Part shown: piece by piece, positions 60,542 through 60,667 of the stretch
Layout: each line of letters begins with the position of its first letter
Numbering within the stretch: position 1 is the stretch's first letter
Assembly (NCBI GenBank): GCA_964538685.1
Contig: CAZIFD010000004.1
Span: 1-62,270, forward strand
Direction: 5' to 3'
DNA: 62,270 nt
DNA from: an uncultured Bdellovibrionales bacterium
GTDB taxonomy: Bacteria; Patescibacteriota; Minisyncoccia; Moranbacterales; UBA2206
The notes under the pieces: model-generated
Databases searched by the model: none
Seen by the model: only the letters and a program-made list of their open reading frames with translations
Told to the model about the DNA's origin: nothing
Made by a program: the position numbers and the translations under genes

Positions 60542-60667
60542 GAATTGCGAAGCAATTCACAAATGAAATTTGTATCCAATTTTTTCCGTTTTTGCCGGAG
60601 GCAAAAATACAGAGCAAGTTTTTTAATCCCGCGCTTTTGCGCCGTAGGCGCAATGGCCAAAGGCGAC
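60542..60667 (+). other. Leader of alternating mini-hairpins and segments complementary to the LSR-2 CDS
   Basis: 60575-60588 rc=62049-62062; 60609-60623 rc=62004-62018 (1 G-T); 60624-60637 rc=61114-61127; 60654-60667 rc=61064-61077; hairpins with GAA, GAA, GGA, GTA loops. Confidence 0.9.

Follow-up and report, generated by a model that had tools for sequence, protein, structure and literature searches.

The locus considered here raises the question of why the leader of a large serine recombinase (LSR) gene should be complementary, stretch by stretch, to the gene that follows it, and in which molecule the two would fold together. The gene, LSR-2, lies on contig CAZIFD010000004.1 of a patescibacterial genome (21 contigs, 859,797 bases); the whole stretch of 62,270 nt that was analysed is called the window, and all coordinates are positions in it. 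A preliminary description of the leader had noted four antisense "clamps" interleaved with small hairpins and had proposed that they fold as plus-strand single-stranded DNA (ssDNA). This leader arrangement is real and conserved. It belongs to a larger dumbbell element with two pairs of long arms, for which the leader is best understood as supplying the staples. Judged by comparative sequence evidence, the element is probably, with considerable doubt remaining, a small integrative defence island that has a serine integrase and whose mobile form is a circle of single-stranded DNA folded on itself.

Homologous loci were drawn from the matches listed; p-values pooled over them are overstated, because the loci were picked by similarity to LSR-2 and are mutually related. 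From loci L001-L115, 88 were used for the analyses of coding-sequence (CDS) helices and of mismatches (80 with an open frame for the CDS helices) and 79 for comparing leader hairpin loops with those of the host; loci with no long repeat, with too little flank or duplicating others were excluded, and L004 and L005 were left out. The architecture census covered 180 non-redundant loci, clamp covariation 88 loci at at least 60% identity, and the leader loop counts and clustering test 120 loci.

A leader that pairs with its own gene

By its sequence LSR-2 is an intact large serine recombinase. Domains PF00239, PF07508 and PF13408 score above cut-off, the motifs Y8-A-R-K-S12 and D81-R-L-A-R and residues C282/C285/C306/C313 are invariant in 8/8 aligned proteins, and the closest solved relatives are YokA/SprA and the A118 integrase.

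The nested pairing of the four clamps with this CDS was recovered as exact helices at all four sites (Table 1), the pure Watson-Crick part of clamp 2 being 60613-60623/62004-62014 (11). The clamps directly continue the 158-nt perfect inverted repeat 60384-60541/62064-62221. With 11 nt as the minimum length, the leader has four antisense matches to its own CDS; 5000 draws of 1369 nt taken at random from the genome average 0.20, and the three draws that reach four are probably draws of the LSR gene itself. Across 120 homologous leaders the mean is 2.1 antisense matches of at least 12 nt, against 0.064 in random DNA, with at least one match in 107 leaders. In the 88-locus covariation set the nested order is kept in 79 of 80 loci, and 34 of 57 clamp columns contain more than one type of Watson-Crick pair; since the covariation cells had been preselected for pairing, the proportion that pairs carries no weight of its own. 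The spacers are, as originally described, four perfect hairpins whose loops are all GNA (GAA, GAA, GGA and GTA). The description c-GNA-g fits the three that are closed by C-G and not the second hairpin, which is closed by T-A. Base 60637 is common to clamp 3 and hairpin 4.

The CDS is also complementary to itself. Its first 1350 nt hold nine helices of at least 10 bp against 1.2 in synonymous shuffles, and none of 200 shuffles reaches nine. The 80 homologues average 8.9 such helices (1.2 when shuffled), 71 of them exceeding all 50 shuffles, compared with 3.5 against 2.0 in 151 host genes, of which 25 exceed all 30 shuffles. The excess recurs in 27 of 27 further loci at at least 41% identity and in three of 13 at lower identity. 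Opposite two of the leader hairpins the CDS has hairpins of its own, which gives four-way junctions (CDS-side hairpins 57/110 and 38/111, vs 2/555). By their sequence, the clamps and GNA hairpins staple the LSR gene into multi-way junctions, and compensatory change maintains these clamps and hairpins.

DNA or RNA, and which strand

Loop types and mismatches both point to DNA as the folded species. The 189 leader hairpins tabulated from the 120 loci include 68 with GNA loops (63 C-closed), four with GNRA and one with UNCG; among the others are 25 ANA, 14 TNC and 14 TNT, and unique stem-loops number 33 GNA to 12 TNC. Co-oriented intergenic hairpins of the host have GNA loops in 4/210 and GNRA loops in 15/210 cases. 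Inner clamp cells that are not Watson-Crick pairs comprise 50 G-T, 39 A-C and 41 others (G-T vs A-C, p 0.29), and a second method gave G-T:A-C counts of 17:19 in the arms, 10:12 in the clamps and 13:16 in the CDS, against 23:4 in the host tRNA stems used as control. Neither of the RNA-type signatures that the preliminary description had named as refuting, namely GNRA/UUCG loops and G-U covariation, therefore marks the homologous leaders. The leader does not resemble a known structured RNA, Rfam returning only two tRNAs at gathering score. The premise that a c-GNA-g loop is more stable in DNA than in RNA agrees with published melting temperatures: d(GCGAAGC) and d(GCGAAAGC) melt at 76.5 °C, and r(GCGAAAGC), the RNA tetraloop version, melts at 39 °C (PMC13037366). 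The same paper places such DNA mini-hairpins at ssDNA priming and promoter sites (PMC13037366).

The choice of the plus strand is only moderately supported. Plus-strand GNA:TNC counts are 68:14 when pooled (39:12 and 29:2 in the two data sets, the latter a metagenome subset); after clustering by LSR they are 15:6 at 85% (p 0.08), 10:1 at 75% (p 0.012) and 4:1 at 65% (p 0.38). A plus-strand G-T bias is confined to clamp 1 (13:2), and because mismatches elsewhere are symmetric both strands can form the helices. The G-T/A-C ratio was dropped as a plus-strand marker since it has no overall bias. On the loop counts a plus-strand preference is likely, not established. Hairpins at the cargo-side junction show no GNA pattern. 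Those within the long arms are also GNA-biased (22 GNA and 9 TNC on the plus strand of B', 5 and 0 in A'); examples lie at 60435-60449 and 91-113, where they would be expected to be buried in the stem, and the bias suggests that pairing of the arms is not permanent.

Architecture and attachment sites

The integrated element reads chromosome-core-A-cargo-A'-core'-B-clamps-LSR-B'-core-tRNA and sits at a tRNA 3' end. Each arm pair, A/A' and B/B', is a long and almost perfect inverted repeat, with arms of about 50-630 nt across the family, and the point where the two pairs meet is a complete inverted attP. The B/B' repeat surrounds the LSR gene in 139 of the 180 loci of the census; of the 41 others most are truncated, and 10 of the 41 (read off the list) have sufficient flank on both sides. 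A called tRNA stands at the B' end in 79 of 118 loci with enough downstream sequence, 50 of the 79 being tRNA-Pro, and where 3 kb or more of upstream sequence is available (36 loci), 20 loci have the second repeat, A/A' around the cargo and abutting B. Complete elements (n=21) measure 3.2-10.7 kb, and as a rule an element holds a single cargo loop. Distant tRNA-adjacent LSRs of the same phylum, in comparable assemblies, have arms in 0/21 and a helix excess beyond all shuffles in 0/21 cases. Among 40 more diverse loci, four of the 13 at <41% identity have arms.

Three junctions can be aligned. The left one reads chromosome-core-A and the right one B'-core-tRNA, while the middle one reads B'-core-A on the opposite strand; they represent attL, attR and a complete inverted attP, respectively. 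These triplets align on a core of 3-12 nt in 16 of the 18 elements listed, the other two not being resolved by the boundaries used, and the core is the last few bases of the tRNA. The attL and attR sites share this short core, attP and attB can be reconstructed, for the LSR-1 element of the window (Table 1) as well, and the att sites are fully predicted. Among 74 loci examined, a tRNA T-loop-like motif lies 19 from the core on the tRNA side (47 counts) and 24 on the A side (43 counts), that is, 5 bp farther from the core in arm A than in the tRNA; a minority of loci have offsets of 21 (A side) and 16 (tRNA side). The shift is seen on the A/tRNA side only, and the B' side is weakly conserved. 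We infer that the motif is the ZD site. The outer motif of serine integrases is shifted by 5 bp between attB and attP according to the accessible text of PMC3783163, and the A side is accordingly taken to be of the attP type. A flank search among the loci analysed revealed no empty attB, and 29 loci of the left-flank gene gave one unrelated tRNA-Pro(TGG).

A proposed folded single-stranded form and its alternatives

The sequence comparisons show the architecture and selection for folding of the DNA type; the free single strand, its source and the path to integration are inferred. If the island does travel as a folded circle, it would be excised by attL x attR recombination and converted to one strand. 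In a single strand closed at the core, A would pair with A' and B with B' to make a dumbbell. Its stem of 250-800 bp would contain attP as a duplex, and its two loops would be the cargo and the compactly folded LSR; this stem pairing would be what maintains the identity of the arms. The clamps would serve as partners for CDS stretches left unpaired by protein constraint, and the GNA mini-hairpins would cap the junctions, conferring resistance to nucleases or single-strand-binding protein and possibly acting as priming signals. The LSR would then recombine attP with attB at the tRNA 3' end, either after second-strand synthesis by the host or directly on the folded stem, with replication completing the event. 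Natural-competence uptake and hitch-hiking on conjugation or phage are candidate sources of the single strand. The direct route, in which the serine integrase recombines the dumbbell stem itself with the tRNA attB and replication resolves the loop-closed arms, is a tentative and rather doubtful extension. If it were true, defence cargo could enter distant hosts by DNA uptake without homology, and cargo and integrase "lollipops" would be swappable at the shared attP.

A number of observations weigh against this reading. Serine recombinases cut both strands, so direct use of the dumbbell would need an extra replication-and-resolution step. The fold of the LSR loop is extensive and incomplete, with only 37-40% in helices of at least 6 bp (17-25% in four shuffles). 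Cargo genes hold 3.5 helices against 2.3 when shuffled, 5/46 lying beyond all shuffles, which is not above host genes; such unstructured cargo speaks against a long-lived naked single strand, which might select for self-pairing. The Res gene in the window is an exception, with 25 helices against 6.8. Folding of the whole element was ruled out on the unfolded cargo and the partial pairing of the LSR loop. No Rep, relaxase or reverse transcriptase is shared among the top 25 families listed per library, so the element has no visible route to ssDNA. The relatives L249 and L252 (35-40% identity) have arms without clamps or CDS folding, and LSR-loop folding must be dispensable for the double-arm plan. 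GNA loops are less dominant in distant loci than in the close clade, the leader hairpins of the 40 more diverse loci comprising 6/27 GNA, eight ANA, two TNC, one GNRA and two TNCG. The comparison of DNA and RNA folding energies that the preliminary description had called for separated neither DNA from RNA nor plus from minus strand (leader z-scores of -1.4 for DNA plus, -2.2 for DNA minus and -1.2 for RNA plus); the program evidently has no GNA bonus, because the plus and minus strands of each mini-hairpin score alike. No relative was found in viral contigs, and plasmid and phage matches were all <30% identical. Neither a circle junction nor a single-stranded form was seen in the contigs of runs X1-X4, which are four of the 24 listed runs (X1 may be the source) and double-strand-derived contigs only.

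Two side observations concern free forms. B'-core-A junctions occur in L016 and L171, where they are indistinguishable from tandem copies or assembly paths. Over 54664-62270 the depth of run X2 is 110-220 on the arms and LSR, about 20x that of the cargo (6); the high depth is due to a relative some 92% alike and cannot be interpreted; an abundant host or a free high-copy form could lie behind it.

Four other explanations were weighed. Assembly or amplification artefact, with collapsed or chimeric inverted repeats, is largely refuted and can practically be dismissed: contigs do often end at arms, and collapsing can yield perfect identity, yet clamp positions are fixed with compensatory changes across many genomes, the same arms occur in the long-read contigs L073, L109 and L115, the unitigs have double depth, and control LSRs from comparable assemblies lack the arrangement. 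Folding might instead be transient and chromosomal, on a lagging-strand template or in a repair gap, the mobile form being an ordinary double-stranded circle; the folded strand would join the ends and rebuild a duplex resembling attP, used to excise the element or to homogenise the arms. In its favour are the same DNA-type signatures, helices equal on both strands, unstructured cargo and a shared gene set without any maker of ssDNA; it remains an unlikely account, since the stapling of the LSR loop alone over its full length and the bias of purine loops to one strand are left unexplained, and long palindromes, a liability during replication, would be a burden there.

Clamps acting in RNA would mean that a transcript from the cargo edge folds the leader onto the CDS and limits LSR expression through the 158-bp stem, by RNase III or a translation block. 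Several results favour this, among them some that count against the folded DNA circle: a sigma70-like plus-strand promoter at 59891-59919 on the edge of cargo loop Y (11/12 consensus) is strong and could transcribe the whole leader, plus-strand promoters lie on the cargo side of A' in 6/21 complete elements, and promoter-like sites downstream of the clamps are no more frequent than expected (10/107 leaders vs 10.4), so that promoter position was dropped as evidence for clamps upstream of the transcription start. The bias on the LSR side favours the coding strand, and the predicted RNA fold holds the same clamps as the DNA fold. The loop census (68 GNA vs four GNRA and one UNCG of 189) and the lack of a G-U preference (50:39, and 17:19, 10:12 and 13:16, vs 23:4 in tRNA) argue the other way, A/A' and the central attP would go unexplained, and the promoter-like site of LSR-1 (225-253) overlaps the clamps; this account is consequently given little credence. 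Slightly better regarded, though still very unlikely, is a double-stranded element whose two inverted attP sites make it a set of invertible or exchangeable modules, with cargo flipped or swapped, arms homogenised by gene conversion and hairpins serving as cruciform protein-binding sites. The complete central attP and the highly variable cargo beside similar LSRs would suit it, as would the B'-core-A junctions of L016 and L171 and the flipped LSR modules of L061, L079 and L100, which are ambiguous and come from short-read assemblies. However, the clamps pair over distances of 400-1500 nt, which a cruciform does not allow, the cargo keeps strongly to one orientation (18837 vs 2678 codons), and attP x attP is normally not recombined (PMC3783163).

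A family in which att sites, leader and CDS all appear adapted to folding as a single strand would mean a new way for genes to be transferred. It would offer a possible mechanism by which Patescibacteria exchange restriction and other defence genes, and it suggests integrases that insert single-stranded or dumbbell donors, which would be relevant to genome engineering. To our knowledge, recombination of folded ssDNA is carried out by tyrosine recombinases, as in integrons and CTXphi, and by HUH transposases, and is not known from serine integrases. No description of this architecture was found in the literature searched, which leaves subscription journals mostly uncovered, and supplements to LSR catalogues may list the enzymes or att sites. 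Such repeats are not mentioned in the accessible parts of 10.64898/2026.01.13.699239 and PMC12455944, the latter of which reports many defence islands in Patescibacteria.

Cargo, neighbouring elements and distribution

Table 1. Coordinates of the element, its leader and associated features in the window.
Feature	Position	Strand	Remarks
Second element of the same family, with LSR-1 (372-1973)	1..1984	+	A' end 1-55; B/B' 51-187/1777-1913
Left end: core (48919-48922) and A-type arm, attL half; outer-copy remnant	48919..49246	+	84% inverted match to 60172-60387
Core GTCG	48919..48922	+	direct repeat of 62218-62221
Cargo loop Z (genes in text)	49247..54758	-	flanked by 227-nt perfect inverted repeat 49020-49246/54759-54985
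18-nt repeat, fusion point of outer to inner copy	54968..54985		outer LSR module presumably deleted
Cargo loop Y	55119..60079	-	flanked by 151-nt perfect inverted repeat 54968-55118/60080-60230
Arm A', inverted copy of left arm	60080..60387	+	holds tRNA T-loop-like motif
Central core CGAC, inverted	60384..60387	+	A' + core + B on minus strand form complete attP
Arm B	60384..60541	+	158-nt perfect inverted repeat of B'; collapsed unitig of about double depth in run X1
Mini-hairpin 1, GAA loop, C-G closed; between arm B and clamp 1	60542..60558	+	tandem with next
Mini-hairpin 2, GAA loop, T-A closed; between arm B and clamp 1	60559..60573	+
Clamp 1	60575..60588	+	pairs with 62049-62062, 14 nt; present in 78/87 homologues
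Mini-hairpin 3, c-GGA-g loop	60589..60607	+
Clamp 2	60609..60623	+	pairs with 62004-62018, 15 with one G-T; present in 75/88
Clamp 3	60624..60637	+	pairs with 61114-61127, 14 nt; present in 70/88
Mini-hairpin 4, c-GTA-g loop	60637..60653	+
Clamp 4	60654..60667	+	pairs with 61064-61077, 14 nt; present in 52/88
Large serine recombinase LSR-2	60695..62269	+	resolvase, recombinase and zinc-ribbon domains; frame crosses B' into tRNA antisense
CDS-side hairpin between targets of clamps 4 and 3	61090..61108	+
CDS-side 11-bp hairpin between targets of clamps 2 and 1	62019..62048	+
Arm B' ending in core, attR half	62064..62221	+	supplies tRNA CCA end
tRNA-Pro(CGG) 3' part, integration target	62216..62270	-	continues on contig C12

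The cargo side of the window (49020-60230) is a tandem remnant, because two other samples carry cargo Y alone: in contigs of runs X3 and X4 the reverse of 60231-60387/9 is joined to 54968. An integron-like cassette array was considered for this region and ruled out by the one-cargo-loop rule and the Y-only versions elsewhere. Arm A contains a unit of 83 nt (60213-60295, 54903-54985 and 49020-49102) in which inverted ends of 18 nt enclose a loop of 47 nt; the fusion point falls within this unit. Tandem accretion is further indicated by L112, where another LSR module, now decayed, lies upstream of the complete one, and by two neighbouring LSR matches in G236:C5.

Cargo Z encodes an aspartate-decarboxylase-like protein, an IS200-type transposase fragment, two radical SAM proteins, a NUDIX protein and a helix-turn-helix (HTH) protein, and cargo Y type III restriction Res and Mod and an HTH regulator. 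The transposase-like short frame (50237-50590) was recognised by eye and has an apparent internal deletion. Across the family most of the cargo is made up of genes for restriction-modification or of another defence type, which follow an HTH regulator, with 18837 codons on the minus strand and 2678 on the plus strand. The 72 cargo proteins fall into 56 clusters, and HTH is the sole widely shared gene; no directionality factor was identified, HTH being the only shared candidate. In both cargo loops a plus-strand promoter-like site (59891-59919 and, spotted by eye, about 54570-54600) overlaps the start codon of the minus-strand HTH gene, resembling a divergent switch. Direct repeats of a GTTCG-like pentamer precede the LSR start in the leaders of L011, L071 and L086, and we take them to resemble a LexA-type box. 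Two cargo proteins have LexA/peptidase S24 domains, and control by DNA damage through such boxes is possible.

The LSR-1 element has four nested clamps without spacer hairpins and targets tRNA-Lys; its attL lies at the end of contig C5, with a terminator-like hairpin just outside the attL core. The promoter-like site that overlaps its clamps is followed by a 110-nt leader with a long stem of its own (259-271/321-333). The stretch 225-371 has no Rfam match and is possibly a regulatory RNA. Elsewhere in the host genome there are a 109-nt perfect inverted pair with no LSR gene within (C1:8267-10669), a decayed inverted-repeat pair around a module (C7:46677-49909) and a third LSR of the family beside restriction genes (C2:23961-25573).

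LSR matches at E<=1e-40 occur in 175 of 401 genomes of the phylum, among the matches listed, a number that takes in distant LSRs lacking the architecture. Most of the relatives that carry a name are Patescibacteria; Omnitrophota and Bacteroidales also figure among them. One 6.2-Mb contig labelled Bacteroidales carries two copies of the element family (L109 and L115) with longer leaders, and the family has thus spread beyond Patescibacteria.

Comparison with known systems

In its enzyme and att logic the element belongs with the large serine integrase elements at tRNA genes (A118/LI, Bxb1 and SPbeta SprA-type), sharing their domain set, attL and attR with a short core, and the 5-bp shift of the outer motif. 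It differs from ordinary members in its second complete attP, inverted in mid-element, and in its long arms, self-complementary integrase gene and leader clamps.

It is neither a CTXphi-like element nor an integron. In CTXphi and the IMEX elements two inverted att copies pair into one duplex site in ssDNA, as far as the accessible text of PMC4246890 goes, and the integrated layout found here is what an event with a folded-ssDNA attP of the CTXphi kind leaves behind (PMC4246890). CTXphi nevertheless depends on the host tyrosine recombinases XerC/D acting at dif, exchanges a single strand and has an attP(+) of ~150 nt, whereas the present element has its own serine recombinase and tRNA targets; CTXphi has rolling-circle replication and virion genes, none of which is shared here among the top families listed; and here the fold would span the whole element plan, with both attP copies looking intact. 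Integrons resemble it in their variable, defence-rich cargo and in a site proposed, in the accessible text of PMC6393395, to form by single-strand folding with strand preference. They employ the tyrosine integrase IntI, attI/attC sites, short local hairpins with extrahelical bases and arrays of promoterless cassettes, in contrast to the serine recombinase and the long inverted repeats flanking whole modules found here. The short-stem c-GNA-g triloops have counterparts at the phage G4 origin, RSF1010 ssiA and the N4 vRNAP promoters, by the accessible part of PMC13037366; unlike those, the hairpins described here are spacers in predicted multi-way junctions and their stem sequence is variable. 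By analogy, the proposed folding step would work as it does in CTXphi-like elements and integrons, in an element that is otherwise of the large serine integrase type.
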